Assembly: GCF_054482595.1 (NCBI RefSeq)
Contig: NZ_CM137008.1
DNA: 64,000 nucleotides
Direction: 5' to 3' (one strand)
The notes beneath the pieces are model-generated. The model did no database searches. It had not been told where the DNA came from and was given only the letters and a program-made list of their open reading frames with translations. Positions 10,267-26,373 of this stretch are shown one piece after another (positions within the stretch are counted from its first letter, which is position 1; each line of letters starts with the position of its first letter). The position numbers and the translations under genes were made by a program.

Positions 10267-10303
10267 GGTAACCCCAATGGATTAAAATAGATGGCGGAAA
10301 TAA

Positions 10304-10331
10304 GTATGACGATTTTAAGTATTCGTCATAC
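10304..10331. promoter_or_regulatory. NikR operator (GTATGA-N16-TCATAC) in the nikA promoter
   Basis: Exact dyad GTATGA (10304-10309) and TCATAC (10326-10331) with 16-bp spacer, 38 bp upstream of the nikA ATG; matches the established NikR operator. Confidence 0.85.
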
Positions 10332-10376
10332 TGATTACCTGTTCTGGATCAATAGATGGGCAGTCGGGTGGGCGGA

Positions 10377-10964
10377 TCAGTTAACTGAATCGATCCATTG
10401 CACACTGTCGGCGGTGAGCGTAAAGGGGGTGGGGGTGCAGATCGCAAGGCTTAAATTTTCTAGCTGACAATGGCTGACTGACAGCGAGGAGTGATAGGTG
10501 CTATCTACGCTGACGATTTGCCAGGCGCTGCCGCCACGCTGTTTAACGATGGCTTCTTTGCGCGTCCAGATGCGCCAGAACATTTCCAGTTGCTGATCAG
10601 GATGCACGGCGTCCATCTCAGCGTGTTCCCCGAGGCTGAATACGGCGTTCGCCAGCCAGCGCCAGTTGGCGCGCGGGCGAATCACTTCGATATCGCAGCC
10701 GACTTCGCCTTCATCACTCAACAGCAGAGCGATATCGTCACCGCTATGGCTTAAGTTGAACCATAGCGGCGTTTCCGGCGCGAATGCAGGTTTGCCTTGT
10801 TCGCCATAGATGATCTCCGGTAGCGGGGAAAGCGTGTGCGAAAGCAATGCACGCCCCGCCAGCCAGCGTTCGCGTCGTGGACCTTGCGGTGCTTGCTCGC
10901 GTAAACCCGGTGGCAGTGGAGCTGCGCTTAAGGTCGAAACTTTCCCCAGAACTATCCGATACAT
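10377..10964 (-). CDS. acpT: 4'-phosphopantetheinyl transferase AcpT
   Basis: 195-aa PPTase; start taken as ATG 10964 (MYRIVLGK), 1 nt after the stop of the upstream ketosynthase gene, so it is the last gene of the APE operon; the ORF track begins 120 nt further upstream. Confidence 0.9.
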   Translation of the reverse strand: MYRIVLGKVSTLSAAPLPPGLREQAPQGPRRERWLAGRALLSHTLSPLPEIIYGEQGKPAFAPETPLWFNLSHSGDDIALLLSDEGEVGCDIEVIRPRANWRWLANAVFSLGEHAEMDAVHPDQQLEMFWRIWTRKEAIVKQRGGSAWQIVSVDSTYHSSLSVSHCQLENLSLAICTPTPFTLTADSVQWIDSVN

Positions 10965-10965
10965 A

Positions 10966-12195
10966 TCAGGGCCAACGTTTAATGATGATGGATGTATTAA
11001 TGCCGCCAAAGGCAAAGTTGTTACTCTGCAAAAACTCACAATCAACCTTGCGGGCTTCATGCATGATGTAATCCAGCGCGCCACAATTCGGGTCTGGTTT
11101 ATTCAGGTTTAGCGTAGGCGCAAACCAACCTTCGCGCATCATTTGCAGACTCATCCAGGCTTCGAGCGCGCCACAGGCACCAAGCGTATGACCAAAATAA
11201 CTTTTCAGCGAGGAGAGCGGCACATTATCACCGTAAATGGTTGCTGTCGCCAGACTTTCTGCCATATCACCGCGATCGGTCGCCGTACCATGCGCTGAAA
11301 TATAGCCGATATCTTGTGCGCTTAACCCGGCGATTTTCAGCGATTGCTCCATACAATACTGCATGGTTTCGCGCTGCGGCTGGGTAATATGTGCCGCGTC
11401 GCAGTTAGTCGCAAAGCCGACGATTTCACCGTAAATGGTCGCGCCGCGCGCTTTGGCGTGCTCCAGTTCTTCGAGAATGAGCGTACCTGCGCCTTCACCA
11501 ATCACCAGCCCGTCGCGGTTTTCATCGAACGGTGAAGGTGTGGTTTTCGGCGCATCATTGTGCTGGCTGGTGGCGAAAAGCGTATCAAATACCGCTGCTT
11601 CTGAAGGACATAACTCTTCGGCACCACCAGCAACCATCACCGTTTGATAACCGTGGCGAATGGCTTCCCACGCATAACCGATTGCCTGGCTGCCGGAAGT
11701 ACAGGCGCTGGAGGTTGGGATCACCCGCCCGCGCAGGCCGAAAAAGAGGCCAGTATTAACGGCGGTGGTGTGCGGCATCATCTGCACATAGGTGGTGCCA
11801 GTGATGTTATTGGTGTGCTTTTCCGTCAGCATGGTGGCGAACTCGCTTACCGGGCCGGTACTGCCGGTCGATGAACCGTACGCAATGCCCGTTTCGCCGC
11901 TGGTTAATATCGGATCGCCAATCAACCCTGCCTGCTCTAACGCCAGCTCGCTGGCACGGGTCGACATTTGCGACACGCGGCCCATCGCACGGATACGCTT
12001 GCGGGTGTAGTGCTCCGGTAGCGTGAAATCATCAACAGGCGCGCCAAGCAGGGTGTGCAGCCCGTCGTAGACCTGCCACTCCGGCATTTTGCGCACCGCA
12101 TTTTCATACGCCAGTAAGCGTGCAGAAACGTCCTGCCAGTTTTCACCAAAGGCAGTCACGCCACCCATTCCTGTAATCACTACGCGACGTGTCAT
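10966..12195 (-). CDS. apeR: Beta-ketoacyl-ACP synthase (APE cluster KS)
   Basis: 409-aa KAS I/II-like protein with active-site Cys context (PTSSACTSGS) and the His pair; the ape letter is assigned by position in the 18-gene order as I recall it. Confidence 0.85.
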   Translation of the reverse strand: MTRRVVITGMGGVTAFGENWQDVSARLLAYENAVRKMPEWQVYDGLHTLLGAPVDDFTLPEHYTRKRIRAMGRVSQMSTRASELALEQAGLIGDPILTSGETGIAYGSSTGSTGPVSEFATMLTEKHTNNITGTTYVQMMPHTTAVNTGLFFGLRGRVIPTSSACTSGSQAIGYAWEAIRHGYQTVMVAGGAEELCPSEAAVFDTLFATSQHNDAPKTTPSPFDENRDGLVIGEGAGTLILEELEHAKARGATIYGEIVGFATNCDAAHITQPQRETMQYCMEQSLKIAGLSAQDIGYISAHGTATDRGDMAESLATATIYGDNVPLSSLKSYFGHTLGACGALEAWMSLQMMREGWFAPTLNLNKPDPNCGALDYIMHEARKVDCEFLQSNNFAFGGINTSIIIKRWP

Positions 12196-12923
12196 AACAT
12201 CCCTCCGTTGATGGAAATAACCTGGCGGGTGACGTAACCCGCAATATCAGACATTAAATAACTGGCAAGCCCGGCAACTTCTTCCGCCTGGCCCATACGT
12301 TTCATGGGGATCATCGACATTGCCTCTTTCAGAGCGCTCTCTTCCATTTCGATCATCCCGGTATCAATAAGCCCTGGCGCGATGCAATTGACGGTGATTT
12401 TGCGCTTTGCGAGTTCGATAGCCAGCGCTTTTGTTGCGCCGATAATTCCGGCTTTGGCAGCGCTGTAATTCACCTGGCCGCGATTGCCCATTACGCCGGA
12501 AACCGAGGACAGCGTGATGATGCGCCCACCCTGGCGCGCGCCGATCATTGGCATAATGCACGGCTGAATGACGTTGTAGAAACTGTCGAGATTGGTGTGG
12601 ATCACCGCATCCCAGTCGTCATCGCTTAAAGCCGGAAAAGCGGCATCGCGGGCGATCCCGGCGTTACTGACCACGCCGTACCAGGCACCGTGTTGCGCGA
12701 TCTCATGCTCCAGCACTTCCCGACACTGTTCGCGGTTTGCGACGTCGAAACTGAGCAAACGCCCGTTACCCCCGTTGGCGACAATGGCATTCAGCGTTTC
12801 CTGAGCGCCTGTGGCGTCACGGTGATAGTGAACGCCAATGTTAAAGCCGTCTGCCGCCAGTTGGCAGGCGATGGCGCGACCAATGCCTTTGCTGGCACCA
12901 GTAACCAGAACTGAACGACTCAT
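12192..12923 (-). CDS. apeQ: 3-oxoacyl-ACP reductase (SDR family, FabG-like)
   Basis: Rossmann motif TGASKGIGRA and SDR catalytic YSAAK; 4-nt overlap with the neighbouring gene. Confidence 0.85.
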   Translation of the reverse strand: MSRSVLVTGASKGIGRAIACQLAADGFNIGVHYHRDATGAQETLNAIVANGGNGRLLSFDVANREQCREVLEHEIAQHGAWYGVVSNAGIARDAAFPALSDDDWDAVIHTNLDSFYNVIQPCIMPMIGARQGGRIITLSSVSGVMGNRGQVNYSAAKAGIIGATKALAIELAKRKITVNCIAPGLIDTGMIEMEESALKEAMSMIPMKRMGQAEEVAGLASYLMSDIAGYVTRQVISINGGML

Positions 12924-13387
12924 CAGGACGCTCCTTGTTGAAACAGGGTGGTAAGTTCTTCCGCGGTCGGCTGGAAGGTGTTAATGCGGCCCGTCGCCTC
13001 GCCGTCGTTGATGCTGCACTCAAAACTGCCGAAGCGATCGTCCTGCATCAGCAGTTTGACGGTAATGGTCAGCGTCTGGCCTGCGGGCAGAATGCCAGCG
13101 GCGCAAAGCAATTCACGCGCGCCCAGTATCATCCCTAACTCAATACTGTTTTTGCCCTGCTGGTGGCGATGCCAGCCAGACCAGACGCCGACGGTTTGCG
13201 CCATCAGTTCAAGGGCAAACCAGCCAGGGAGATTGCCGTCCGGGTCGAGAAACGGTGCCAGTACGCCACTGGGCGAAACCGTCACGCGGCACACCGCGCT
13301 GTCATCGCTGACGCTCACCACGTCTTCCAGCAGTAACATGGGCGCGTCGTGGGGCAGATAAGCGCCGGGGGATAAATAGTGGCTCAC
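12923..13387 (-). CDS. apeP: Hotdog-fold 3-hydroxyacyl-ACP dehydratase
   Basis: 154-aa hotdog-fold protein; partners with the second dehydratase (apeI) in APE clusters. Confidence 0.75.
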   Translation of the reverse strand: MSHYLSPGAYLPHDAPMLLLEDVVSVSDDSAVCRVTVSPSGVLAPFLDPDGNLPGWFALELMAQTVGVWSGWHRHQQGKNSIELGMILGARELLCAAGILPAGQTLTITVKLLMQDDRFGSFECSINDGEATGRINTFQPTAEELTTLFQQGAS

Positions 13388-14562
13388 GAAACCCTCCCGA
13401 GCAGAATGCTGGCGTTATTGCCGCCAAAGGCGAAGGAATTGGACAGGATCACCGGACGTGCCAGCGGCTGCGGTTTTTCGATAATGCCGCAGGGTGGCAG
13501 CGTGGGATCGCGTGGCGACAGGCTGAAATCTTGGGCGGGCAGCGGTAAATCACGCTGTAAGATCAACATACTGATTGCTGCTTCGGTAATGCCCGCCGCG
13601 CCCAGCGTGTGGCCGGTCAAATGTTTGGTGGAGCTGCACGGTACGCGTTCGCCAAACAGGGCGTTAACCACCATCGATTCAATCTGGTCGTTGAGTTGCG
13701 TGGCGGTGCCGTGCAGGTTGATATAGCCGACGTCATCTGGCGTAAGCTGCGCATCGGTCAGTGCCTGATTAATGGCGCGGATCGCCCCTTCGCCCTGCGG
13801 ATGCGGGGCCGAAATATGGTAAGCGTCACTCGATTCACCAACGCCCAGCAATGCGATGGGCTGCGGTTCGCGGGTTAATAACATCAGCCCCGCGCCTTCG
13901 CCAATGGTGATACCTGCGCGGTCACGACCGAACGGCTGACATAAAGTTGGCGAGAGCGATTCGAGGCTGTGAAAACCGTTAATCGGCATCCGGCTCAGGG
14001 TGTCTGCGCCACCCACAATGGCGGCATCGACCAGCCCCGTCTCGATAAGCCTGCGCCCGCTGATCATCGCTCTGGCGCTGGAGGAGCAGGCGGTTGAAAG
14101 GGTATAGGCCGGGCCGTCGAGCGCCAGCCAGTGGCTGAGAAAACGCGACGGATCGCCAAGTTCCTGTTGTGCGTAGTGCCATGTGGTGCTCGGCAGCCCG
14201 TGGGTGCGCAGGTTAACGTGCGTGTCGCCTTCATGCAGGCCGGAGGTGCTGGTGCCAAGTACAATCGCGATGCGCTCGCGACCATATTTCGCTATAGCGT
14301 CATCAACCTGCGGCTGGAGCTGCGCCAGCGCCGCCAGCAGGATCTGATTGTTGCGCGAGCGATGCGCAGCGAATTTTTCCGGGATAAGCGGAAGCTCGCC
14401 ATCCACGCCAGCCAGGACCGCCTGCGGATGCCCCTGCAACCAGCCTGCGCGTGGGCGCATTCCGGGGGCGACACCGCGAGCCAGGTTGGCTGCGATTTCG
14501 TCAAGATTATTTCCCAGGGCGTTGATCATGCCGACGGCGGAAATATAAATCATATCAGTCAC
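13384..14562 (-). CDS. apeO: Beta-ketoacyl-ACP synthase (APE cluster KS)
   Basis: 392-aa KS-family protein with conserved Cys (LSTACSSSARA) and C-terminal SNSFAFGGNNA. Confidence 0.85.
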   Translation of the reverse strand: MTDMIYISAVGMINALGNNLDEIAANLARGVAPGMRPRAGWLQGHPQAVLAGVDGELPLIPEKFAAHRSRNNQILLAALAQLQPQVDDAIAKYGRERIAIVLGTSTSGLHEGDTHVNLRTHGLPSTTWHYAQQELGDPSRFLSHWLALDGPAYTLSTACSSSARAMISGRRLIETGLVDAAIVGGADTLSRMPINGFHSLESLSPTLCQPFGRDRAGITIGEGAGLMLLTREPQPIALLGVGESSDAYHISAPHPQGEGAIRAINQALTDAQLTPDDVGYINLHGTATQLNDQIESMVVNALFGERVPCSSTKHLTGHTLGAAGITEAAISMLILQRDLPLPAQDFSLSPRDPTLPPCGIIEKPQPLARPVILSNSFAFGGNNASILLGRVS

Positions 14563-15139
14563 CTAAGTATTGAATGGTGATGTGGTATTTAAAGACATGC
14601 TGTTCAATGCTGATTGGCACGCGTTTGCCCTTGCGATTCAGATAGGTGATTTCCGTGACCAGCTTGCCGCTGGCGTTACGCAGCTCGCGTTTGTCACCGT
14701 TGTCGCGAAGTGTCCAGCCAGTGGGAAGTTGCGGTTGCCAGGCGCTAATCGGCCAGTGGCTGAGCATTACGTCAGCCAGCACCTGACTTGCGGGCGGCAA
14801 CTGTGGGACGACGATGGATTGCTCGGCGCGTAGCCCTTGCGCATCGTAGGTCAACAGAAACAGGCGAATGCCGACCGACGACAGCCCGGCAAGGGTGATT
14901 TTCTGGTCGTCGGCGTTAAGCATCACTAACAGCGACTGGGTTTTGCCGTTGAAGCTGCCGGTCAACAGTTGCTGGGAATTGACGGCGGGTGAAATCCCTG
15001 GTGCCGGCAGCGTGATGCGCGTGCCAGGTTGCAGCCACGCCTGCGGGCGGCCTTCCTGTTCCGGTTGCGAGTGGCTACAGCCGGTGAGGATAAGCGTAGC
15101 GGTCAGGGCGAGCGCTCGCCAGAATGTGGGTTTGATCAT
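14555..15139 (-). CDS. apeN: Lipoprotein, APE-cluster associated
   Basis: Signal peptide with lipobox LTGC; conserved position between the KS and MMPL genes. Confidence 0.7.
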   Translation of the reverse strand: MIKPTFWRALALTATLILTGCSHSQPEQEGRPQAWLQPGTRITLPAPGISPAVNSQQLLTGSFNGKTQSLLVMLNADDQKITLAGLSSVGIRLFLLTYDAQGLRAEQSIVVPQLPPASQVLADVMLSHWPISAWQPQLPTGWTLRDNGDKRELRNASGKLVTEITYLNRKGKRVPISIEQHVFKYHITIQYLGD

Positions 15140-17454
15140 TTTTTTGTTCTCTTTTTATCGGGCATCGCCAGCGGCGAAAGCAGGAAGGCGGTGAAAATAC
15201 CGCTCACCAGCACAATGCCAAAACTGCTGATGGCCTGGGTGGCGCTGAATACCAGCATTCCCAGCGTCAGCAAGGTGGTGAGCATTGCCAGCGTGATCGC
15301 CAGTAGCGAAGTTAATGGTGTACCGCGCGGATTACTGAAAAACAGCGTGTAGTTGATGCCGATGCCAAGCACCAGCACCAGCGCCAGCAGCGAAAAGAGA
15401 TTCACCGCCTGCCCGCTCATCGCCAGCACCGCCAGACCACAACCCAGCGAAAGCACCGAAGGTACAAGGCTGATAAGCCCTTTGCGCCAGCCGAGACGGG
15501 CCACTGCGCCGCAGGCAATCACCGCCAGCGCCACCAGCAACAAGCCGGTTAAGACATAACGGTAAAGCGCGAACAACTCATCAAAGGTGCTTTTGCGATC
15601 AACCCAGGCAATGCCGCAAGGGTAATATGTGGCGATTTCCTGCATCAACGCGCTACTTTTAACCCCTTCAACCGGCACCAGTACGCCGCTTTCGCCGTTT
15701 TCCAGCGTCAGCCACAGCAGACGCCAGCCTTCACTGGCGGGGCTTGCCAGCCATTCATCAACGTTCACTGGCATGGCGTTGAGATCCGGGTTCACTGCCG
15801 TCAGCCCGGCATTTTGCAGCGCTTTTGTTACTGTCGGGGCCGCCGTTTTCAGCAGTTGTAAATCTTCCTCCTGCCGCGCAAGGGAGTTCAGCGGAATGGT
15901 GCGGTAGTTGCTGATAAGCCCCTCTTTTTTCGCATACTCAAGTGAGGCGGTATATTTCTCCAGTCGCCGCAATGTTTGCTGTGGCGAATCGCCGTAAACC
16001 ACAAACCATTTTTGATCGACGCTTTGTCCGGTCAGGGCGGTAATGGCTTTCTCCTGGGTCAGAATATGCTGCGGCAGCGCCTGTAACTGCGAGATATCGT
16101 CATCGACGCGCAGCATTGACATCCCCGCCAGCGAAAACAGCGCCAGCGCGACGGGCAGACCCAGCGACAGTTTTTTATTGCGCCGCCACGCTGCCAGCCA
16201 GCGCAGCATCAGCGCCATCGCCGGAACCGGACGCACCGGCAGGCCACGGCACAGCCACGGATGCCAGAACAGGACGGTCAGACAGGAGGCGCTCAACCCG
16301 ACGGCGGCAAAAATCGCCATCTGGCGAATGCCGGGGAAGGGGGCGAGCATCATAATCAGATATGCCGCCACGGTGGTGAGCAGCGCCAGCAGCAGGGCAT
16401 TGCGTACTTTCGCCAGGCTTTGCCACGGCGAAACGTCGTTGCCGTGCACCATCCGCTCGGTGAGATAATAGAGCGTGTAGTCAGCGGAAATGCCGATAAC
16501 GCTCATGCTCATCACCAGCGTCATCAGGTGTAATTCACCGAAAATCAATAAAGTGGCGACCGTTCCCGCCAGCGCGCCGATGCCGATGGAAATCACGCAA
16601 AGCAGCAACGGGCGCAAAGAGCGGAACACCGCCACAATCAGCAATATCACCCCCAGCAGCGTTGCCACGCCCAGGGTTGAGATATCCTGCTTCGCCTGTT
16701 GGCTGGCGTAATCGCTGTAAAACACCGTGCCGCGCGAAAGCAGCTGCGCCTGCGGGTAACGCGTTTTCAGATCCTTTTCCAGCGTATTCAGGGTCGTGAT
16801 GAGCTGGTGGGTTTGCTGCATATCAAACGACGATCCCGCCAGTTCACCGTGCAGCAGATACCAGTAGTTGCCCTGGGGATCCTGCGTCACCAGCCAGCCG
16901 TCCATCAGCCGCAAACGCTGGCCGTTTTTCGCCATCGCCAGCTGCGAGCCGCGCATTAACATCAGCGGATCGTTTTGCAGCTCCTTGCCGCTTACCCCGG
17001 AGAACGCAGAATAAAGCTGGGAGAGGATCCACTGCGCCTGCGCTTCGCCGCCGTTTTGCAGGCGCGCGCGGGTGTCGGGGTCAATCAGGCCGTTGCGGTG
17101 CTGCCAGAAAAACGCTCCCCACGCTTGCTGGCTGGCGGCATCCATTGGCCCTTTAACGTCGCCGAGCGCAGCGGATTTTTGCAGCAGCGTCAGCCACTCC
17201 TGAGCGACCCTGGGATTAGCCTCTTTACCGGGGCTGACCAGCCACACCAGTTGGCGGTCCAGACGCTGCATAAAGCCGTCATTCAGCGCTGGGGGAATAT
17301 CGCCCATAGCCTGTTTGGGTAACATAGCCAGCACGCTACTGTTCAGCCGTGATTGCGGCAGCAGGATCAGCAACGCCGCCGCCATGACCAGGCAGACTAG
17401 CCCCCATAACAGCGCGGGGCGTTTACTGGGCGGCAAAACGTTGGCGTTCGTCAT
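15136..17454 (-). CDS. apeM: MMPL/RND-family membrane exporter
   Basis: 772-aa protein with two hydrophobic bundles separated by periplasmic domains, typical of MMPL transporters. Confidence 0.8.
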   Translation of the reverse strand: MTNANVLPPSKRPALLWGLVCLVMAAALLILLPQSRLNSSVLAMLPKQAMGDIPPALNDGFMQRLDRQLVWLVSPGKEANPRVAQEWLTLLQKSAALGDVKGPMDAASQQAWGAFFWQHRNGLIDPDTRARLQNGGEAQAQWILSQLYSAFSGVSGKELQNDPLMLMRGSQLAMAKNGQRLRLMDGWLVTQDPQGNYWYLLHGELAGSSFDMQQTHQLITTLNTLEKDLKTRYPQAQLLSRGTVFYSDYASQQAKQDISTLGVATLLGVILLIVAVFRSLRPLLLCVISIGIGALAGTVATLLIFGELHLMTLVMSMSVIGISADYTLYYLTERMVHGNDVSPWQSLAKVRNALLLALLTTVAAYLIMMLAPFPGIRQMAIFAAVGLSASCLTVLFWHPWLCRGLPVRPVPAMALMLRWLAAWRRNKKLSLGLPVALALFSLAGMSMLRVDDDISQLQALPQHILTQEKAITALTGQSVDQKWFVVYGDSPQQTLRRLEKYTASLEYAKKEGLISNYRTIPLNSLARQEEDLQLLKTAAPTVTKALQNAGLTAVNPDLNAMPVNVDEWLASPASEGWRLLWLTLENGESGVLVPVEGVKSSALMQEIATYYPCGIAWVDRKSTFDELFALYRYVLTGLLLVALAVIACGAVARLGWRKGLISLVPSVLSLGCGLAVLAMSGQAVNLFSLLALVLVLGIGINYTLFFSNPRGTPLTSLLAITLAMLTTLLTLGMLVFSATQAISSFGIVLVSGIFTAFLLSPLAMPDKKRTKK

Positions 17455-18028
17455 CGGTCAGTTGCGCTGGCGTCAGTTGATGTTGGGTAAGAGCAATATC
17501 GGTGCGATCGCCCTGTTTATCATTAAGTTGAATGCTCTCCAGATAGGTTTTCCCGGCGAGATCGATGGTGTTGAAAATTTTATCCAGCGGCGTGGTGGTC
17601 GGCGTCAGGCGCAGCGTCCAGCGGCCTTCGCCTTTGTCAGCAAATTCGACGCGGAAGTTTTGTTCCAGCACTTTGCGATCGGCCTGGAACAGCGCGCGCA
17701 GCAGGTGGTTAAACTGGAACATCTGCGGGTTGTTTTCTGCCGTGATGATTTGCGGCGGCTGACCGTTGATCACCTGCACCATGCGTTTATCATCCAGCAA
17801 TAGCTGCATGGGGAACGGTGAGGTTTGATCCCACAATAACCCCTGGTCGCGGGCGATCAACATCTGACCCTGAGATCGCAGCGGCTGCGGCAGATCTTTA
17901 ATCGTCCGGGTTTGATCAAAATGGGCGCGGATCACCGGTTGTTCGGTAAAGCGTTGCTGAAGATCGTCCAGGGTCAGGGCGCTCACAAACGGGCTAATCA
18001 GCAGCGCCAGCAGCGGTAAAAATTTCAT
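17423..18028 (-). CDS. apeL: LolA-like outer-membrane lipoprotein carrier
   Basis: 201-aa secreted protein with signal peptide (MKFLPLLALLISPFVSA) and LolA-fold-like length/composition. Confidence 0.7.
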   Translation of the reverse strand: MKFLPLLALLISPFVSALTLDDLQQRFTEQPVIRAHFDQTRTIKDLPQPLRSQGQMLIARDQGLLWDQTSPFPMQLLLDDKRMVQVINGQPPQIITAENNPQMFQFNHLLRALFQADRKVLEQNFRVEFADKGEGRWTLRLTPTTTPLDKIFNTIDLAGKTYLESIQLNDKQGDRTDIALTQHQLTPAQLTDDERQRFAAQ

Positions 18029-18447
18029 GGTTTGACTCCCATGCGTTCAAACAGAATATCGGGGCTGACAAAGCACAGTTCGCGACTTTGCTCGTCGACC
18101 GCGACCTGAATGGTGTATCCGGTGGTGGCGCGTTTGCCCGTTTCGGCATCGAAAATCTGATAGCCAATCCGCAGACGGTTTTCGAACTCTTCGATATGCG
18201 CACGCACGCGGATGCGTTGCTCAAAGGTGAGGGCGTGGCGATATTTCACCCGCGCATCGACCACTGGCCACAAATAACCGGACTCTTTCATCTGCCGATA
18301 GCCGTAATTGAACTGGTTGAGCAGCGCCTCGCGGGCCACTTCAAAGTAGCGAAAATAGTTACCGTGCCAGGCCACGCCCATCATATCGACGTCGTGAAAG
18401 GGAATGGTCAGCTCGACTTCAGCGGTAAATCGGGGATCGTTAAGCAC
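18025..18447 (-). CDS. apeK: Hotdog-fold acyl thioesterase (4HBT-like)
   Basis: 140-aa protein resembling the YbgC/4-hydroxybenzoyl-CoA thioesterase family. Confidence 0.75.
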   Translation of the reverse strand: MLNDPRFTAEVELTIPFHDVDMMGVAWHGNYFRYFEVAREALLNQFNYGYRQMKESGYLWPVVDARVKYRHALTFEQRIRVRAHIEEFENRLRIGYQIFDAETGKRATTGYTIQVAVDEQSRELCFVSPDILFERMGVKP

Positions 18448-18450
18448 CCT

Positions 18451-20127
18451 TTACTCCTTGTCCTGAATTTCCGGCAGTTGCCAGAAATCGAAAAAATTAA
18501 ACCAGTCGAGGGGCGACTGGAGCGCGTAATGTTCCAGACGCGCGGCGTAGTGGTCGATAGCGTTTTGCAGCGCCTGCTGGCGTTCGCCACGCGGCAGTTG
18601 CAGCGGGTCGGCAAAGCTTTCGCAGTGAATATGCAGCTTGCCGTGCTGGCGTAGGGCGAAAATCAGATTCACTGGGCAGCGCAAAATAGAGGCGAGAATA
18701 AACGGCCCCTGTGGGAAGGGCGCAGGCTGGCCCATAAACGGACTCCAGCAGACGCGCCAGTCGCCGCCGCGTTGCGGGGTGACGGCGATGCGGTCACCGA
18801 CAATCGCCACCCATTCGCCGTTATCCAGCTTCTCTTTCAGCAGGATGGCGGTTTCTGGGCCGATATCTGTTACCGGCATCAGGTTAATGCCTGCCTGAGG
18901 AGCCATCTCCTGCATTATCTGTTTAAAGCGTTGGGCGTTTTCGCTAAACACCAGCGCGTTAATGGTTTTGTAGCCCTGAATTTTTGCCAGCGCCCGGCAC
19001 ACTTCCACATCGCCAAGATGCGAGGCCAGCAGCAATTTGCCGCGCGGATCGCGGACGTCAAGCGCCGCTTCTGCGCCTGGCGCAAACAGCACATCACGCC
19101 CCAGTTGTAGCTCGCCGCGCCAGCTGGCGATTTTGTCGAGCATGGCATTACCGAAACGTAGAAAGTGCTGATAGCTGTTGAGTTTTGCCGCCTGTGGTTG
19201 ATGCTGTCGTACACGGGCGAGCCAGTCTTGCGACGCTTTGCGCGCACGAGAAGCAGTGAGCCAGTAGACGCCCACCACCGGGTAAAGCAGCGCGCTAAAC
19301 GCCGTTCTTCCCAGCAGACGCCAGACCAGCAGCATCAGGCGCATTCCCCATAATCCTTTCACTTCACTCTGCCGCGCCCAGTGGCTGGAAGAGCGGCGCA
19401 TCAGCAGTGAAGGAATACGCGGTAACATGCCGAAAAATAGACGCGTGTGCATGAGCGAGATGCGGACGTTATCTTTCAGGGCATCAAAATGCGAAAGCCC
19501 GTCCAGTGGATAGGTGACGCGGGTCGGCACGAAATAGCTGGTGTTTCCCTGCCAGTAGAGGCGCACCATCACTTCAGTGTCGAAATCCATCCGCTTGCCG
19601 ATGGTGGCGTGTTTTGCCAGTTGCAGCGTTGGCGCAACCGGATAAACGCGAAAGCCGCACATGCTGTCTTTCAGTTGCAGGGAGAGCGTTTCGATCCATA
19701 CCCAGACGTGGGTGACCCAGCGCCCGTAAAGCCGTGAGCGGGGGATGGAGTCATCGTAAATTGGCTGGCCGGAGATCAGCGCCGCAGGGTGTTGTTCAGC
19801 GACTGCCAGCAGTTTGGGGATATCTTCAATCGCATGTTGACCGTCAGCATCCACCTGCACTGCATGGCTGAACCCTGCGTCTGCCGCTGCCTGTAAGCCA
19901 CGCATCACTGCCGCGCCTTTACCTGCGTTTTCTGCTAAGCGAATTAAGGTCACGCCAGGCTGTTCGCTAACCAGATTATCCAGTTGCTGTTGCGTGGCGG
20001 CATCGCTGCCGTCGTCCACCACAATACAGGGGAGATTAAATGGCTTAAGACGCGCCAGCACGCCCGGCATCATCGCGCCGTGGTTATAGCAGGGGATCAA
20101 CACGCAGGGAGAAAAGTTTACCGACAT
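18451..20127 (-). CDS. apeJ: Fusion of family-2 glycosyltransferase and LpxL/HtrB-like lipid acyltransferase
   Basis: N-terminus has the GT2 signature (IPCYN...VVDDGSD); C-terminal half resembles lauroyl/myristoyl lipid A acyltransferases. Confidence 0.75.
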   Translation of the reverse strand: MSVNFSPCVLIPCYNHGAMMPGVLARLKPFNLPCIVVDDGSDAATQQQLDNLVSEQPGVTLIRLAENAGKGAAVMRGLQAAADAGFSHAVQVDADGQHAIEDIPKLLAVAEQHPAALISGQPIYDDSIPRSRLYGRWVTHVWVWIETLSLQLKDSMCGFRVYPVAPTLQLAKHATIGKRMDFDTEVMVRLYWQGNTSYFVPTRVTYPLDGLSHFDALKDNVRISLMHTRLFFGMLPRIPSLLMRRSSSHWARQSEVKGLWGMRLMLLVWRLLGRTAFSALLYPVVGVYWLTASRARKASQDWLARVRQHQPQAAKLNSYQHFLRFGNAMLDKIASWRGELQLGRDVLFAPGAEAALDVRDPRGKLLLASHLGDVEVCRALAKIQGYKTINALVFSENAQRFKQIMQEMAPQAGINLMPVTDIGPETAILLKEKLDNGEWVAIVGDRIAVTPQRGGDWRVCWSPFMGQPAPFPQGPFILASILRCPVNLIFALRQHGKLHIHCESFADPLQLPRGERQQALQNAIDHYAARLEHYALQSPLDWFNFFDFWQLPEIQDKE

Positions 20128-20471
20128 AGGCGGATCTTCCCGCTACTGGCGGTGTGGCGGGCGTCACCGTCGTGACGCTGATAGCTAAAGCTCAGAATCT
20201 GGCGTTCTTCCTGCCAGTTAAGCGCGAGCGTGACGCGGTTTTCCGGCAGCAACGGAGACTGGAATTTTATGTTCTGAATGGAGTGAAAACGCCAGCCAGG
20301 CGCGAGCAGATTGAGCGCGTAGCTCATCGCCCAGTCGATTTGCGCAACTCCTGGGAGTAATGGTTGCACGGCAAAATGACCGCGAAACCAGAACAGATCC
20401 GCCCTGAGATGCAGAACAATTTCAAGGTGATTCGTTTGTGCCTGATGGCGCTCGATTTCATGGGGCTTCAT
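20118..20471 (-). CDS. apeI: Hotdog-fold dehydratase (FabA/FabZ-like)
   Basis: FabZ-like core (FRGHFAVQPLLPGV); start placed at ATG 20471 (MKPHEIERH) with AGGAG 7 nt upstream; the ORF track begins at a GTG 30 nt further upstream. Confidence 0.75.
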   Translation of the reverse strand: MKPHEIERHQAQTNHLEIVLHLRADLFWFRGHFAVQPLLPGVAQIDWAMSYALNLLAPGWRFHSIQNIKFQSPLLPENRVTLALNWQEERQILSFSYQRHDGDARHTASSGKIRLCR

Positions 20472-21819
20472 GAAATAACTCCTGTAATTGCGCATAGACA
20501 CGCTTGTTCATACTGTTTACTGGCATTTCATCAATAACGCGCCAGTAACGCGGAATAGCAACTGGCTCCAGCGTCGGGCGCAGTAAACGCCGCCAGGTCA
20601 TTTCCTGGCTATGCCCGCCGCCGTTCTGCCATTGCAGATGAGCTTCGTCATCCAGCACCAGCAAAACGCCTATGCTCTGACGCCCGCCGCGCGTAACGGG
20701 AACTGCCGCCGCCTCGCGAATGCCGTCCAGCGCCAGTAGACGTTGTTCTACTTCCTGGAGTGAAATACGTTTTTCTTCAATCTTAACGATGCGCCCACGA
20801 CGCCCCATCAGATGGAACTGACCATCTTCGCTAAGCTGTAAGATATCGTCGAGTAACAGGCCGTTATCTTCCGCTATCAGCGGTGAAAAGAGGCGAAAGG
20901 CATCGCCTTCGGCTTGGAACTGCATACCTGGGAGGGGTAGCCAGCGGCGTTGCTCTTGTTCGCGGTAACGCCAGGCGATGACGCCGGTTTCCGTGCTGCC
21001 GTAGATTTCATCAGGCCAGACGCGCAGCCAGCTTGCGGTGTGTTGTACATCCTGCCACGGCAGCTCACCGCCAGCAGAGAGAAGCACCTGAACGGGTGGC
21101 GGAGAAAGCTGGGTATCCAGGCGCTTCAAAAATGCCGGGCTGCTGATGAAGATATAGCGATGCTGATGACTCAACGCGGCAAACTGTTCGACATACCAGA
21201 GCATGGCGGCGTGCAGCGGTAATCCCAACGCCATGGGCAGGAAAACACGAAAAGTCAGGCCGTACAAATGCTGCGGCAATACGGAACCGACGACACGACA
21301 ACCCGCCAGACGTGCGCCTAATCGTTCAGCCAGCAGTTCTGCTTCACGATCCAGCAAATGAACAGGTTTAATCACCCGTTTCGGCTGTCCCGTGGAACCG
21401 GAGGTAAACAGCTCGATAAAAGCCTCTGGCGCTATAGCGGCAAAGGTGAAGGATTGTGTCGCGACTTGTGGGGAACTTGCTACCAACAGCCATGAACCTT
21501 GCCAGTTAAGTTCGCTGTCGCTAAGCACACCATCGAACAGTTCACGTTGCTCGTTAAGCTGGATGACACGGTTATGCCCCGGAAGCACCGGTGTTTTTCC
21601 GGCGTGTAGCGTGGCGAGCAGGGCAACGATAAACAGATAGCTGTTCTCAAAGCACAGCGCCCAGCGTTCACCCGGCTGTTGCTGCAAGCGGCAGATAAGT
21701 TGCGCGACATCGTGACGCAAATCGCCCAGCGTCCAGGTGCTTTCGTCCAGCCACGCAATGGGCGTGTCATCAGGGCGTGGCGCAGTCAGCCAGCGTGCAA
21801 GCGGTAAGGTCTGCTTCAT
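20458..21819 (-). CDS. apeH: AMP-dependent acyl/aryl-ACP ligase (adenylating starter-unit enzyme)
   Basis: ANL-superfamily motifs (TSGSTGQPK, YGSTETG); start placed at ATG 21819 forming an ATGA overlap with the upstream gene. Confidence 0.8.
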   Translation of the reverse strand: MKQTLPLARWLTAPRPDDTPIAWLDESTWTLGDLRHDVAQLICRLQQQPGERWALCFENSYLFIVALLATLHAGKTPVLPGHNRVIQLNEQRELFDGVLSDSELNWQGSWLLVASSPQVATQSFTFAAIAPEAFIELFTSGSTGQPKRVIKPVHLLDREAELLAERLGARLAGCRVVGSVLPQHLYGLTFRVFLPMALGLPLHAAMLWYVEQFAALSHQHRYIFISSPAFLKRLDTQLSPPPVQVLLSAGGELPWQDVQHTASWLRVWPDEIYGSTETGVIAWRYREQEQRRWLPLPGMQFQAEGDAFRLFSPLIAEDNGLLLDDILQLSEDGQFHLMGRRGRIVKIEEKRISLQEVEQRLLALDGIREAAAVPVTRGGRQSIGVLLVLDDEAHLQWQNGGGHSQEMTWRRLLRPTLEPVAIPRYWRVIDEMPVNSMNKRVYAQLQELFHEAP

Positions 21820-22397
21820 GCGCGATCTCTTTTCATCACCTGACGGCGCACCAGCCATTCACCAGCCATTAATGTTCCCATCAACAAATAAGCAATCATG
21901 CCGTTCCAGGCGGTCCATAACGACATATCGGCATAAAGCGCGGTAAAGAGGGCAATTCCACCGTTAATGATGAAAAAGCCGCACCAGATTTGCGTGACGT
22001 GGCGGGTATAGCGCACGCCCTTTTCCGGGAGGTCTGGCTCCTGCAACCGCGCCAGCCGCTCAACTATCGGCATTGCCGACCACAGCGAACCGCCAAAAAC
22101 CGCCAGCATGACCGCGTTAACCACTACCGGGTAAAACAGCAGTAGCTGGTGCGTTTTCAACATAAAGCTGGCGACACATAATGCGATGCCCACGACAGCG
22201 ACGAGTTGCGTGACGGCTTGTAAAGGCCCCGCCTGGCGACGGGTCTGGCGCAGACGCAACAAAAGCAGCAACGCCATTAGCGGTAACAGCCAGTGCAGGC
22301 CGTTATGCGCTAAGCCAAACCAAATCACAAACGGCCAGGCGAGCAGCAATAATCCAGTCAGCAGCTTAATCATCGGTAGCGAGCGAATGCCCGACAT
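21816..22397 (-). CDS. apeG: Integral membrane protein, APE-cluster associated
   Basis: 193-aa hydrophobic protein with several predicted TM helices; conserved position. Confidence 0.6.
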   Translation of the reverse strand: MSGIRSLPMIKLLTGLLLLAWPFVIWFGLAHNGLHWLLPLMALLLLLRLRQTRRQAGPLQAVTQLVAVVGIALCVASFMLKTHQLLLFYPVVVNAVMLAVFGGSLWSAMPIVERLARLQEPDLPEKGVRYTRHVTQIWCGFFIINGGIALFTALYADMSLWTAWNGMIAYLLMGTLMAGEWLVRRQVMKRDRA

Positions 22398-22401
22398 CAG
22401 A

Positions 22402-22653
22402 TCAGGCTTCTTGTAGCAGGCGTTCTACAGCCTCGACGACATCCTGGACTGTACGCACGGCTTTAAACTCTTCCGGCTTGATTTTCTTACCGGTTTTCTT
22501 TTGCAGGTGCACAATCATGTCAACGGCGTCGATGCTGTCCAGTTCCAGATCTTCGTACAGGCGCGCTTCAGGTTTGATGTCCTGCGGATCGATTTCAAAC
22601 AGCTTAACCAGCAGGGCTGAGACTTCCTGATAGACGGTTTGTTGTTCTGTCAT
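22402..22653 (-). CDS. apeF: Acyl carrier protein
   Basis: 83-aa acidic protein with phosphopantetheine attachment motif LELDSIDAVDM. Confidence 0.85.
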   Translation of the reverse strand: MTEQQTVYQEVSALLVKLFEIDPQDIKPEARLYEDLELDSIDAVDMIVHLQKKTGKKIKPEEFKAVRTVQDVVEAVERLLQEA

Positions 22654-22664
22654 GATGGCTTTCC

Positions 22665-22922
22665 TCAGGCACGTTGCGCAGCAATGAAAGAGGCCAGAGT
22701 GGCGACGGAGAAAAAGTGCTGACGCATCTCTTCGCTTTCCGCAGAGAGCACGATGCCGTACTCATTTTTTACTGCCAGTCCCAGTTCCAGGGCATCGATA
22801 GAGTCCAGCCCTAAACCGTCGCCAAACAGCGGCGCGTCGGTATCGATATCATCAGGCGTCAACTCGTCCAGATTGAGGGTGCTGATGATGAGGTTTTTAA
22901 TTTCCAGATAAAGCGCTTGCAT
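22665..22922 (-). CDS. apeE: Acyl carrier protein
   Basis: 85-aa protein with attachment motif LGLDSIDALEL; tandem with a second ACP. Confidence 0.85.
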   Translation of the reverse strand: MQALYLEIKNLIISTLNLDELTPDDIDTDAPLFGDGLGLDSIDALELGLAVKNEYGIVLSAESEEMRQHFFSVATLASFIAAQRA

Positions 22923-23736
22923 TATTTATTCCTGAGAGAGGTAAACAACCTTGTTGTAATTGAAGCAAAAGATGCCGGTTTAACTGCCTTGCTGCCAGCG
23001 CCGGTTCTTGTGAAGTTGCATCGTAAAATTTATTGATTTCAACCCGACCATGGACTGCAACCGTAAAAAACGGCCGGTCAGGTGGAACGTCATACCATTT
23101 ACTTTGTTTATCCAGCAGATGCTCGCTACAGCCGATCGTCACGATGCGTAAATCGCTGGCACAGCGCACGGCAATATTCGCCGCCCCGCGCTGCAGCGTC
23201 ATTTTTTCACCGGGCTTCGTTCGCGTGCCTTCGGGGAAAATCAGGATAGTGTCACCCTGTGCCAGTCGCTGTTGGCAGCGGGGTAACAGGGTTTCAGCTT
23301 CGCTGTTGATTAAATAATCTGCCGCCCGCACGACGCCGCCAAGAAAAGGATTTTTTAACAGCGCGCTTTTCACCAGGCAGTCAGTTTCTGGCATGACTGA
23401 CGCCAGCAGCACGTAATCGATCAGCGTGGGATGATTGGCTACGACGAGGCAACCGCGTTCCTGACGTAAAATTTCAGCGCCATCAATACGATAATCCAGC
23501 ACGCCAAGCCCTTTCGCGACAGTTAAAAACAGGCGAAAACTGGCGGCAATGCTGCGACGCGCCAAACGACGGCGGCGGGAAGTATCCCACACCAAAACTA
23601 ACAATATGTTAAACCACACGACAGAAAGCAGCAGGCCGCCGAGACCAAACAGGGCAAAACATAACCCGGTCATGACCAGTCGCCAGGTCCACTCCAGACG
23701 TGACAGCAGCTTACTCATCCACGGCTCCAGCGCCAC
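22897..23736 (-). CDS. apeD: Lysophospholipid (PlsC-like) acyltransferase
   Basis: N-terminal TM segment followed by an acyltransferase core with the HPTLIDY and FPEGTR motif pair. Confidence 0.75.
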   Translation of the reverse strand: MALEPWMSKLLSRLEWTWRLVMTGLCFALFGLGGLLLSVVWFNILLVLVWDTSRRRRLARRSIAASFRLFLTVAKGLGVLDYRIDGAEILRQERGCLVVANHPTLIDYVLLASVMPETDCLVKSALLKNPFLGGVVRAADYLINSEAETLLPRCQQRLAQGDTILIFPEGTRTKPGEKMTLQRGAANIAVRCASDLRIVTIGCSEHLLDKQSKWYDVPPDRPFFTVAVHGRVEINKFYDATSQEPALAARQLNRHLLLQLQQGCLPLSGINNASALSGN

Positions 23737-24437
23737 TGTACGCGCTCGCCAGGCAGTGAAAATGTGTCCGCATTTTGTAAATAGTGCTGTAAAAACAACA
23801 TGCTTTGCGGCAGTGTTGTTTCATTACCCGCAATGGCTGACTGCGTTTCACATTGCCACTCATCGCCAGCTTCAATCACCAGCGCGACGGCGTACGGCCA
23901 GGTCGGCATTTCTGCGGGCAGTTGTGGATGATAGAACTCAGGCAGAAAGCCATCAAAATCGACCATCAGCACGCGCTGGTATCCCGCTTGTAACAGGCTA
24001 AGCACTTCACACAAACCTTGCTGGAAAGTGTCGCGACCAGCAGAAAGCGATGACGAAACGATCGGCTGTTTGGCCGCAATGGTCAGGTTACCCACGGAAG
24101 AGTTGTGTACTGAAAGTGCAAAGTCGGTCGGAGAAAGCGCCTGTTCGGTTGCCAGTGCATGAACAATGCGGTAATTGCGCTCCAGTTCGCCATGACGACT
24201 GGTATACAAAACGGCGTCTGGCTGATGGCGGCGTAGCATTGCCAGACCGCATTCAACAGCCAGTTTGCTGCCTGAACTGAGGCGGCGGGCGGTCATCATT
24301 GGCAGTTCACTTAATTTTGCCAACGGCGCGGCAGGGTCAATCGCCCACGGCTGGCGCGACCATGCTTGCCATTGCTGCGCTTCGCTAAGTCCAGGCGCCA
24401 GTGCCTGCCAGTCGGTAATATTTAATGTAAATTTCAT
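23715..24437 (-). CDS. apeC: Ketosynthase-like chain-length-factor protein (no intact KS catalytic triad seen)
   Basis: 240-aa KS-related protein lacking an obvious active-site Cys context; start placed at ATG 24437 (MKFTLNI). Confidence 0.65.
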   Translation of the reverse strand: MKFTLNITDWQALAPGLSEAQQWQAWSRQPWAIDPAAPLAKLSELPMMTARRLSSGSKLAVECGLAMLRRHQPDAVLYTSRHGELERNYRIVHALATEQALSPTDFALSVHNSSVGNLTIAAKQPIVSSSLSAGRDTFQQGLCEVLSLLQAGYQRVLMVDFDGFLPEFYHPQLPAEMPTWPYAVALVIEAGDEWQCETQSAIAGNETTLPQSMLFLQHYLQNADTFSLPGERVQWRWSRG

Positions 24438-24477
24438 CAACGCGCGCCCGCGGTAAACCAAAATTATTAAGTGACGA

Positions 24478-25545
24478 TTATTTCTTTTGGCATATCAAAA
24501 GTGTATGCCCAACGCCTAAATTATCGTGGCGCTCTGCTACCTGGAATCCTGCTTTATTCAGATAGTCGTAAAATTTCTCTGCACTATAGAAACGGCTGTT
24601 ACCGTTTGCCATGCAGGTAAAATAAAGTGAGGACGCGTTCAGGCTAAATGATGCTGCTTCAAACCGCTGCGCATCCCAGAACAACTCCATGATGCAAACT
24701 TTTGCGCCAGGCTTCATTACGCTGGCAATTTTGCTGAGTATGCTAATTATTTGTTCGGGTGAAAAACAGTCTAAAAATTGGCTCATCCACCAGATATCAG
24801 CCTCGCCCGGTAATGGGGCATCGCTTAGCATATCCACCGCATGGAAATCTATGCGATCAGAAAAACCTGCATTCGCGATATTTTCTTTCGCTAGTACGAT
24901 TTGTTGTGGCAGATCTAATAACGTCACGGCGATGTTTTCATTGTATTTGCAGCAACGCAAAGCCCACTTACCCGTATTGCCGCCTACATCGTACAATGTT
25001 GTGGGGTTGTTGGCGAATACATAAGGCAGTGCGGCGTTAAATGCGCCATCTGAATAGTAATGATCAAACGCAAACCAGCTTTCACGAGCGGCGTCTGGTA
25101 ATTGCGAAAGTGCCGGATATATCGTCGACCAGTCGCCAAATACTTTTAACCCGGAAGGTTTTCCTTCATTGAGTGAATCGGCGAGGAAGAAGAGCCCCTG
25201 GTAACAGACATCCTGGGTGAAATCCATATTCACGCGAGTCATAGTGTCATGCAGGAGGTAATGACCGATTTTCGCCAGGTAATAAATTCCCTCTTTACAG
25301 GTAATAATTCGCCCGCTTAAGCCCATATCTAACAGAACGCTGGCAGCATATTCGTTGATATGGCTATGTTCGGTGATATCAGCCAGCGTTGCGCCATGTT
25401 TGCCTTGCCGATCCAGATATGAAAGTACACCCGCATTACGTAGGCAGAGTGCTGTTTGAAAAAGCATAGGGGCAAAGGCAATGCGTTGAGCTTCGGTAAT
25501 CGCATCCAGTGCGCTAAGAGAATCCTGTTCGTACATGTTGGGCAC
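24478..25545 (-). CDS. apeB: SAM-dependent methyltransferase (O-methyltransferase-like)
   Basis: Class I methyltransferase fold (VGGNTGKWA...LLDLP); an alternative ATG start lies at 25536. Confidence 0.75.
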   Translation of the reverse strand: MPNMYEQDSLSALDAITEAQRIAFAPMLFQTALCLRNAGVLSYLDRQGKHGATLADITEHSHINEYAASVLLDMGLSGRIITCKEGIYYLAKIGHYLLHDTMTRVNMDFTQDVCYQGLFFLADSLNEGKPSGLKVFGDWSTIYPALSQLPDAARESWFAFDHYYSDGAFNAALPYVFANNPTTLYDVGGNTGKWALRCCKYNENIAVTLLDLPQQIVLAKENIANAGFSDRIDFHAVDMLSDAPLPGEADIWWMSQFLDCFSPEQIISILSKIASVMKPGAKVCIMELFWDAQRFEAASFSLNASSLYFTCMANGNSRFYSAEKFYDYLNKAGFQVAERHDNLGVGHTLLICQKK

Positions 25546-25604
25546 AACCTGTTAAGAGGGAATTAAATTATTATCGGACCGCAACGGCCCGACTTTAGGA
25601 AGAA

Positions 25605-25994
25605 TTATAAATCTGCGCCCGCTGACAAATTCAGTTGAATATCTTTGTCGAGATTGCGGACCCAGCGATTGTAGTTTTTATGAATTTGTCCGCCTGACGC
25701 TTGTAGGTTCTGGCTATTTTCATAATTGATATCGTAGCTGGATGCCGTGTAGTTAATGCGTATTTCCGCTGAATGATCGCGTGACTGTTGACGTGCTTTA
25801 ATTATGCCTTGTCCGGCTTCGGACATAATCCATTTGCGTTCAACGCCAGCTTTCAGAATCGCTTTTTTCACTTGTTCCTGGGTATGACCAGCGCTGACGG
25901 TTGAGTGAACCTGATCAATTGGCGCAGTACGCGCGCAACCTGCTAAAGCACCCACAACAGCAATAGCCGCAAACCATTTCATGTAATGTCTCAT
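25605..25994 (-). CDS. apeA: Lipoprotein, first gene of the APE operon
   Basis: Signal peptide with lipobox LAGC; an alternative start (MKWFAAI) lies at 25982; followed upstream by a 380-bp AT-rich promoter region. Confidence 0.6.
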   Translation of the reverse strand: MRHYMKWFAAIAVVGALAGCARTAPIDQVHSTVSAGHTQEQVKKAILKAGVERKWIMSEAGQGIIKARQQSRDHSAEIRINYTASSYDINYENSQNLQASGGQIHKNYNRWVRNLDKDIQLNLSAGADL

Positions 25995-26323
25995 TAGAAC
26001 CCCATTAAAGTATTGTTTTTACGAGTAAAGCAAGATTTAACTGTAATTGCTGGCATCACTATTCTTTATTTAGAGAAAAAATTACTTGTGAGATAAGTCA
26101 GTAAGTGCACATCAGAGTAAAAATCTCTGAAATGACTAAATTACTGCCAGCAGGGACCAACTATAAGTGAGTGAGAAAAATGAGGCAATAAAAATAACAC
26201 AATGTTATCAGTGCATTCTTTGAGAAGGATTTAATCGCTATTCGGCGTTTATATATATTTGACTTAAGGAATGGTTTTTTTAAATTAATTTTCTGAATAA
26301 TGTTTCATCATTTCCTCAAATCA

Positions 26324-26354
26324 AATGGCCACTGTTAGATAAACGGTGGCCATT
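26324..26354 (-). terminator. Candidate terminator hairpin downstream of yhhT
   Basis: Inverted repeat AATGGCCAC-N12-GTGGCCATT 20 nt past the yhhT stop; T-rich tract is weak. Confidence 0.4.
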
Positions 26355-26373
26355 GCCTGCTCAGGAGGTGCTA

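Follow-up and report, generated by a model that had tools for sequence, protein, structure and literature searches.

In this study, we analysed a stretch of 64,000 nucleotides from contig NZ_CM137008.1 (RefSeq assembly GCF_054482595.1), called the window here, with regard to acpT, the gene of an Sfp-type 4'-phosphopantetheinyl transferase (PPTase), and the aryl polyene (APE) operon at whose end it lies. The locus is laid out as yhhT, then apeA-apeR-acpT, then nikA, and its core is a run of 19 minus-strand genes from 25994 down to 10377 which either overlap or are separated by no more than 16 nt, save for one 59-nt gap after the first gene (Table 1). As the initial annotation of this DNA had proposed, acpT is the last gene of the operon, the nineteenth of 19 same-strand genes made up of apeA-apeR and acpT itself. 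The minus strand reads ...ATC ATC ATT AAA CGT TGG CCC TGA T ATG TAT CGG ATA... across the stop codon of apeR, the last ketosynthase gene, and the acpT start, and the one-nucleotide spacing that had been claimed for the two genes proved exact, coordinates included.

The acpT reading frame matches the AcpT equivalog model NF007676 with 396 bits (cut-off 174) over residues 1-195 of 195, and PF01648 is recorded on its homologues. An alternative in-frame GTG start at 11084 would lengthen the gene; the family model and all orthologues start at the ATG. The motifs sought, G-x-D-x-E and W/F-x-x-K-E-A-x-x-K, lie at G89-C90-D91-I92-E93 and W133-T134-R135-K136-E137-A138..K141 in the window. Across 80 orthologues both motifs are kept, as GCD(I)E and WT(R)KEAxxK, without any variation at D91, E93, K136, E137 and K141. 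Judged by these matches, the window acpT belongs to the AcpT or Sfp-type (group II) phosphopantetheinyl transferases.

A ribosome-binding site of its own is hardly discernible before acpT. Pairing with the anti-Shine-Dalgarno sequence 5' of its ATG reaches -1.5 kcal/mol, against -8 to -11 kcal/mol for apeP, apeQ and apeR, and the median over 58 operon-bearing loci is -2.4 kcal/mol. Because acpT has no Shine-Dalgarno (SD) sequence of its own and its ATG stands 1 nt past the apeR stop, it is most likely translated by termination-reinitiation. There is no hairpin at the apeR-acpT junction, where the RNA is less structured than shuffled controls (z +1.67). Moreover, consensus scans of the minus strand from the apeR start (12195) to nikA (10266), with terminator loops limited to 3-8 nt, gave no promoter-like or terminator-like site; a promoter and a terminator between the ketosynthase and acpT were what the initial annotation had named as speaking against a common operon, and no consensus site of either kind lies there on that strand.

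The presence of two acyl carrier proteins (ACPs) in the same operon as the PPTase, likewise claimed before, is borne out by profile matches in the region 22402..22922 (NF003757 with 146 bits for apeF, NF006617 with 90.8 bits for apeE) and by an LDSIDA serine motif in both proteins. ApeE and ApeF are the presumed substrates of AcpT. The family matches in the rest of the run include a lysophospholipid-type acyltransferase, an adenylating enzyme, a glycosyltransferase, a thioesterase, a LolA-like protein, an MMPL exporter, two further ketosynthases and a FabG2 reductase, with apeQ, apeP and apeO overlapping by 1-8 nt. The gene set and order reproduce the apeA-apeR table of the E. coli aryl polyene cluster (Table 1 of PMC8253772), and on the strength of this collinear set we assign the run to the APE gene clusters. 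Pigment formation was demonstrated for the CFT073 copy in a heterologous host (PMC8253772) and is putative for the window copy.

It is apparent from a survey of one genome per species, which returned 80 acpT loci, that the junction is a widely conserved arrangement. The gene directly upstream of acpT is apeR in 55 of the 80 loci, in at least 17 genera. At 53 of these the stop-to-start distance is -1 nt (1 locus), 1 nt (22), 2 nt (29) or 3 nt (1), whereas the bases of the spacer vary freely; at the other two the protein alignment to ApeR stopped early and the junction text is the same. The upstream gene is yhhT at 22 loci, at a distance of 51-159 nt, and is not assignable at three (two at contig ends, one without an upstream match within 600 nt). 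Spacing this uniform exceeds chance. The operon-bearing genera include Escherichia, Citrobacter, Klebsiella, Raoultella, Enterobacter, Leclercia, Lelliottia and Kosakonia, as well as Pluralibacter, Kluyvera, Cedecea, Phytobacter, Silvania, Huaxiibacter, Superficieibacter and others. The gene 3' of acpT changes among them, being the nik operon in E. coli and C. koseri, the convergent arn operon in K. aerogenes and Enterobacter, and a glycosyltransferase or NlpC/P60 gene elsewhere; since the apeR adjacency is conserved while the downstream neighbour changes, acpT moves together with the ape rather than the nik genes. Even at an identity to AcpT of just 37-63%, PPTases follow apeR by 1-3 nt in Cronobacter, in a Pantoea-labelled genome and in metagenomic contigs. 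AcpT evolves much faster than ApeR, which is 80-91% identical at the same loci. One record, titled Chryseobacterium sp. 18061 (locus L069), carries a typical Enterobacteriaceae apeR-acpT region near-identical to that of Citrobacter sp. 18056 (L070), and is probably mislabelled or contaminated.

The alignment of the K-12 yhhT-acpT region that the initial annotation had suggested for mapping the deletion endpoints was run with blastn. The K-12 MC4100 locus aligns to window 30339-26378 and 10984-5800, and the 15,393 bp between, positions 10985-26377, have given way to 38 nt. On the left the break falls at the yhhT stop codon (GGA TGA in K-12, GGT TAA in the window), and to the right the last 19 nt of apeR are kept before acpT, where K-12 reads CATTAAACGTTGGCCCTGA-T-ATG. 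The ApeR C-terminus ...IKRW is also found where acpT is absent, in Serratia and in the genomic-island copy, so these codons are apeR's own. It follows from the apeR remnant in K-12 that the empty site is a deletion and not a vacant insertion site. With up to 3 mismatches allowed, the 38-nt filler had no match in the window; it resembles a decayed 3' end of apeR when inspected by eye (GGCGACA.. against GGCGGCA..), though not to a statistically demonstrable degree.

The proposal that acpT was orphaned by deletion of the island therefore stands as regards the deletion, given the 19 nt of apeR that remain in K-12, but not as an event specific to K-12. Of 5426 complete E. coli genomes, 5425 have a full-length acpT; the K-12-type yhhT-scar-acpT arrangement is found in 4856 and the apeR-acpT junction of the native-locus operon in 569, and the two states together account for all 5425. 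Nor is the scar confined to E. coli: the spacers, 51-63 nt long, can be aligned over their full length between this species, E. albertii, Salmonella enterica subspecies and several Citrobacter, and the left junction is at the yhhT stop in all of them. In this alignment the scar has the look of a single old deletion allele, although at such divergence one deletion is not distinguishable from recurrent deletions at a hot spot. The Enterobacter scar, of 134 nt and retaining about 115 nt of apeR, is independent and younger. Between E. coli and Citrobacter, synonymous divergence (dS) of the ape genes (0.9-1.3) matches that of nikA (1.0-1.1), so that both the full and the empty alleles appear to be old. 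Of two strains labelled Citrobacter youngae, one (L020) has the operon with a 1-nt junction and the other (L021) a 62-nt scar, so that a presence/absence polymorphism of the operon exists within or between very close Citrobacter lineages, as in E. coli. As to APE genes elsewhere in Salmonella or the C. freundii complex, no Salmonella name was among the top 120 ApeF homologues, which is weak negative evidence, no search aimed at these genomes having been made.

There are also APE clusters without acpT. The ApeE/F region occurs in 824 E. coli genomes, which exceeds the number with an apeR-acpT junction by 255. In Nissle 1917, DA61218 (L094 1-5700) and HH45 (L095 13000-28200) the cluster lies on a genomic island by cdiBA and a garD fragment and stops exactly at the apeR TGA, after which comes unrelated island DNA and no acpT. 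A Serratia sp. cluster (CP074137.1, L091 9560-9790) has the same 18-gene architecture, with an ApeR 89% identical to that of the window, and ends at apeR, beyond which lie 181 nt and then a convergent gene; no AcpT-like sequence was found anywhere in that locus. In agreement with this, the cluster c1186-c1204 of CFT073 comprises 18 genes without a dedicated PPTase and yet pigment was made from it in the K-12 host Top10 (PMC8253772), which means that the PPTase is provided in trans by an enzyme of the host, for which the chromosomal acpT is the obvious candidate. Hence the description of acpT as the terminal gene of the APE operon holds for the window and the native locus and is not universal, given that the CFT073/Nissle-type island and Serratia clusters end at apeR.

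In the lineages that lost the operon, acpT has been retained. It is intact in all 22 operon-less species, and the ratio of nonsynonymous to synonymous substitution rates (dN/dS; Nei-Gojobori, median per lineage group) is 0.07-0.11 in the four groups without the operon (Salmonella, the C. freundii complex, a second Citrobacter group and Escherichia) and 0.09-0.16 in four groups with it. Synonymous and nonsynonymous acpT changes differ accordingly (Fisher p < 1e-7), and the key catalytic residues of AcpT are invariant in both the operon-bearing and the operon-less sets. As judged from these substitution patterns, the orphan acpT is under purifying selection and is not decaying.

The scar in front of the orphan gene is conserved as well. 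Compared with fourfold-degenerate sites of acpT, it differs at 1/54 positions against 0.24 between E. coli and E. albertii (P ~5e-6), at 0/54 against 0.20 in a Citrobacter group and at 6/134 against 0.20 in Enterobacter. It contains an open reading frame (ORF) of 17-18 codons in Escherichia and Salmonella, whose ATG overlaps the yhhT stop (GGATGA) and whose TGA, the old apeR stop, lies 1 nt before the acpT ATG; the product would be MRRQVIRYALSFSIKRWP in E. coli (K-12, L001 3963-4020) and MRRQMLQSPLLHRQRWS in Salmonella, each up to the stop, and the genera differ by an in-frame 3-nt indel. The frame was also read at the same region in loci L003, L029, L030 and L014. One Citrobacter group has a 14-codon ORF closing at the same TGA, and Enterobacter a 32-codon ORF of the apeR tail from an internal Met. 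The arrangement would fit a relay by which translation of acpT passed from apeR to yhhT; a 17-codon open frame, however, arises by chance with a probability of ~0.4. Consensus scans gave no promoter-like or terminator-like site from yhhT to acpT in K-12; the conserved TGnTAC(G/A)AT of the scar could be an extended -10 promoter, a reading inseparable from that of a relay ORF.

Taken together, we consider it very probable that acpT is the nineteenth and last cistron of the native-locus APE operon, that it provides the PPTase for ApeE and ApeF, and that its likeliest mode of translation is reinitiation after apeR. In such a scheme acpT would be co-transcribed as the final cistron of the native-locus ape operon, and ribosomes terminating on apeR would re-initiate at the acpT ATG. 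AcpT would then turn apo-ApeE and apo-ApeF into their holo forms by loading 4'-phosphopantetheine, and the holo proteins would let the type II polyketide synthase-like machinery build the polyene. Coupling would tie a small amount of a catalytic enzyme to expression of the operon. The geometry of the junction and how widely it is conserved, the families, and the piece of apeR left in operon-less genomes were observed here, and the in vitro activity of AcpT comes from the literature; co-transcription and coupling we infer. Coupling appears to be the best-supported mode of translation in view of the TGA-N(1-3)-ATG geometry, the lack of an SD in most lineages, and a spacing that is kept despite variation of the spacer bases.

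Several points weigh against this scheme. An SD-like GGAG precedes acpT in 7 of the 58 operon-bearing loci, so coupling is maybe not the sole route to its translation, and a promoter inside apeR could escape consensus scans. A linked PPTase is not needed for APE synthesis, as the CFT073/Nissle-type and Serratia clusters that end at apeR make plain. In addition, acpT is kept under selection without the operon and is thus more than an operon accessory; to call it the dedicated PPTase of the island ACPs, as had been done, is too strong for a gene that is intact, with dN/dS of 0.07-0.11, in operon-less lineages.

That acpT persists in nearly every E. coli genome while the adjacent operon is found in just 569, that it is constrained in operon-less Salmonella, C. 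freundii complex and Escherichia, and that APE clusters without it exist, might suggest that it is an independent gene of the core genome with a role of its own, beside which an APE cluster landed by chance insertion. We regard this as very improbable. The operon-less genomes themselves carry 3' codons of apeR before acpT (SIIIKRW-stop in Citrobacter, ~115 nt of apeR in Enterobacter), which means that the operon-bearing state is ancestral and the empty site a deletion, and the IKRW tail belongs to ApeR, since it is seen without acpT in Serratia and the genomic-island copy. A chance landing also accords poorly with a tight junction in at least 17 genera with varying downstream genes, and with an E. 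coli-Citrobacter dS of the ape genes equal to that of nikA.

Another possibility is that acpT is transcribed mainly from a promoter of its own in the apeR 3' end and is translated independently, the 1-nt spacing reflecting gene packing. It is evident that acpT is expressed without the operon, as a K-12 host supports pigment formation from a PPTase-less cluster and the gene is under selection, and the apeR-derived spacer, being more conserved than acpT fourfold sites (1/54 against 0.24), could reflect such a promoter. However, consensus scans gave no sigma-70-like site either in the apeR 3' end of the window or between yhhT and acpT in K-12, there is no SD for independent initiation, and a short coupling ORF explains the conserved spacer equally well. 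An own promoter as the main source of acpT expression thus seems improbable to us, and we retain expression of acpT as the last cistron of the operon, with reinitiation after apeR, as the preferred reading.

For the history of the locus as a whole we offer a more tentative account, which we hold possible but somewhat short of even odds. One old deletion would have taken the native APE operon from the ancestors of most E. coli, E. albertii, Salmonella and several Citrobacter; acpT and its 51-63-nt spacer would have been under selection since, with translation re-wired from apeR to yhhT through the relay ORF; and the enzyme would serve island APE clusters that lack a PPTase, another carrier protein, or both. 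Two leads to further functions of AcpT were followed and rejected. IacP was considered as an AcpT substrate in Salmonella, and this lead turned out to be the text "IacP_TAP" matching "acpt". Suppression of yejM mutants, the other candidate for a second native role, is independent of catalysis and is attributed to FtsH titration on overexpression (PMC7240159).

Table 1. Positions of the genes and other elements of the ape-acpT locus in the window
Feature	Position	Strand	Basis or remark
nikA	8692-10266		flank
acpT-nikA spacer	10267..10376	-	contains 10-bp perfect palindrome
acpT, Sfp-type 4'-phosphopantetheinyl transferase, 195 aa	10377..10964	-	NF007676; final cistron of same-strand run
apeR stop/acpT start junction TGA-T-ATG	10962..10968	-	TGA 10968-10966, lone T 10965, ATG 10964-10962; direct reading
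19-nt apeR 3' end	10966..10984	-	kept before acpT in K-12 and every operon-less E. coli; right breakpoint
apeR, last beta-ketoacyl-ACP synthase, 409 aa	10966..12195	-	NF006587, 778 bits (cut-off 470)
O-island 138 type segment, 15,393 bp	10985..26377	-	K-12 MC4100 has 38 nt instead (blastn)
apeQ, FabG2 ketoreductase	12192-12923	-	NCBIfam match
apeP, dehydratase	12923-13387	-	NCBIfam match; ApeP-like Pfam on orthologues
apeO, ketosynthase	13384-14562	-	NCBIfam match
apeN (DUF3261), apeM (MMPL/RND exporter), apeL (LolA-like), apeK (thioesterase)	14555..18447	-	family matches; order as in CFT073 ApeA-R table
apeJ (glycosyl/acyltransferase), apeI (dehydratase), apeH (adenylating acyl-ACP synthetase), apeG	18451..22397	-	family matches; ApeI-like and AMP-binding Pfam on orthologues
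apeF, acyl carrier protein, 83 aa	22402-22653	-	LDSIDA serine motif
apeE, acyl carrier protein, 85 aa	22665-22922	-	LDSIDA serine motif
apeD (acyltransferase), apeC (chain-length-factor-like), apeB (FlxJ-family methyltransferase), apeA (lipoprotein)	22897..25994	-	family matches and CFT073 gene table
Candidate sigma-70 promoter TTGCCT-17-TATAGT	26160..26188	-	consensus scan alone, no evidence of function; in 380-nt AT-rich spacer upstream of apeA
yhhT	26374-27423		flank

The acpT-nikA spacer holds the palindrome GTATGACGA-N10-TCGTCATAC at 10304-10331 (minus strand), followed by TTATTT, with an RNA fold of -26.8 kcal/mol (z -2.88). Its 10-nt loop is above the 3-8 nt limit of the terminator scan, which could not report it; as a hairpin it may be a weak terminator of the ape-acpT transcript. 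The same palindrome presumably also resembles a NikR operator. At the other end of the operon, the inverted repeat AATGGCCAC...GTGGCCATT at 26324-26354 (minus strand) comes just past the stop of yhhT in alleles with the operon; it is not in the K-12 scar allele and may insulate yhhT from the ape promoter region. With regard to regulation, RpoS exerts a negative control of 2- to 6-fold over seven O-island 138 genes (Z4851-Z4861) in EDL933, and acpT is not in the table that lists them (PMC2907692).

The link between acpT and the APE operon was already published in 2006, so that the finding itself restates a known result and its practical value is modest. The work on AcpT and the island ACPs that the initial annotation had attributed to Cronan and colleagues exists, and is cited in PMC8253772 as De Lay & Cronan (2006). 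According to that citing paper, AcpT activates the O157:H7 homologues of ApeE and ApeF in vitro, and the title of the study (Mol Microbiol; cited in PMC8253772 and PMC4103896) has the AcpT of K-12 orphaned from its O157:H7 substrates by genome rearrangement. What is added here is the exact breakpoints, the population frequencies, the conservation of the junction across genera and the selection on the orphan gene. With 19 genes instead of 18 and a PPTase of its own, the native-locus APE cluster bears on how cluster boundaries are annotated and on heterologous expression. The comparative gain is that loss of the operon is ancient and common to several genera, and that the PPTase and the scar before it are still selected. 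The ~255 E. coli genomes with a mobile APE cluster must borrow a PPTase from another site, presumably that of the chromosomal acpT. Should this be confirmed, we would have here a clear case of an accessory enzyme which persists after its own pathway is lost and makes a later re-acquisition of the pathway functional.

Among known systems, E. coli AcpT (YhhU, ORF195) and O-island 138 of O157:H7 EDL933 share gene, locus and proposed substrates with the window, and there is no essential difference between the two. The APE_Ec cluster of E. coli CFT073 reportedly goes back to work by Cimermancic in 2014. Its 18 genes, apeA-apeR (c1186-c1204; Johnston et al., 2021, PMC8253772), have the same order as in the window; the CFT073/Nissle-type copy, however, occupies a genomic island at another chromosomal site and has no PPTase gene, whereas the window has the native locus with one. 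The island copies are nonetheless close to the window DNA, the apeR region of DA61218 being 97% and the ACP region of HH45 92% identical to it. PPTase genes embedded in secondary-metabolite clusters are familiar from clbA of the colibactin island, entD and sfp, and the likeness is that in each case an Sfp-type PPTase is encoded beside the carrier proteins it activates. Unlike these, acpT is a 3'-terminal cistron with no SD, and one that outlasts its own cluster under purifying selection.

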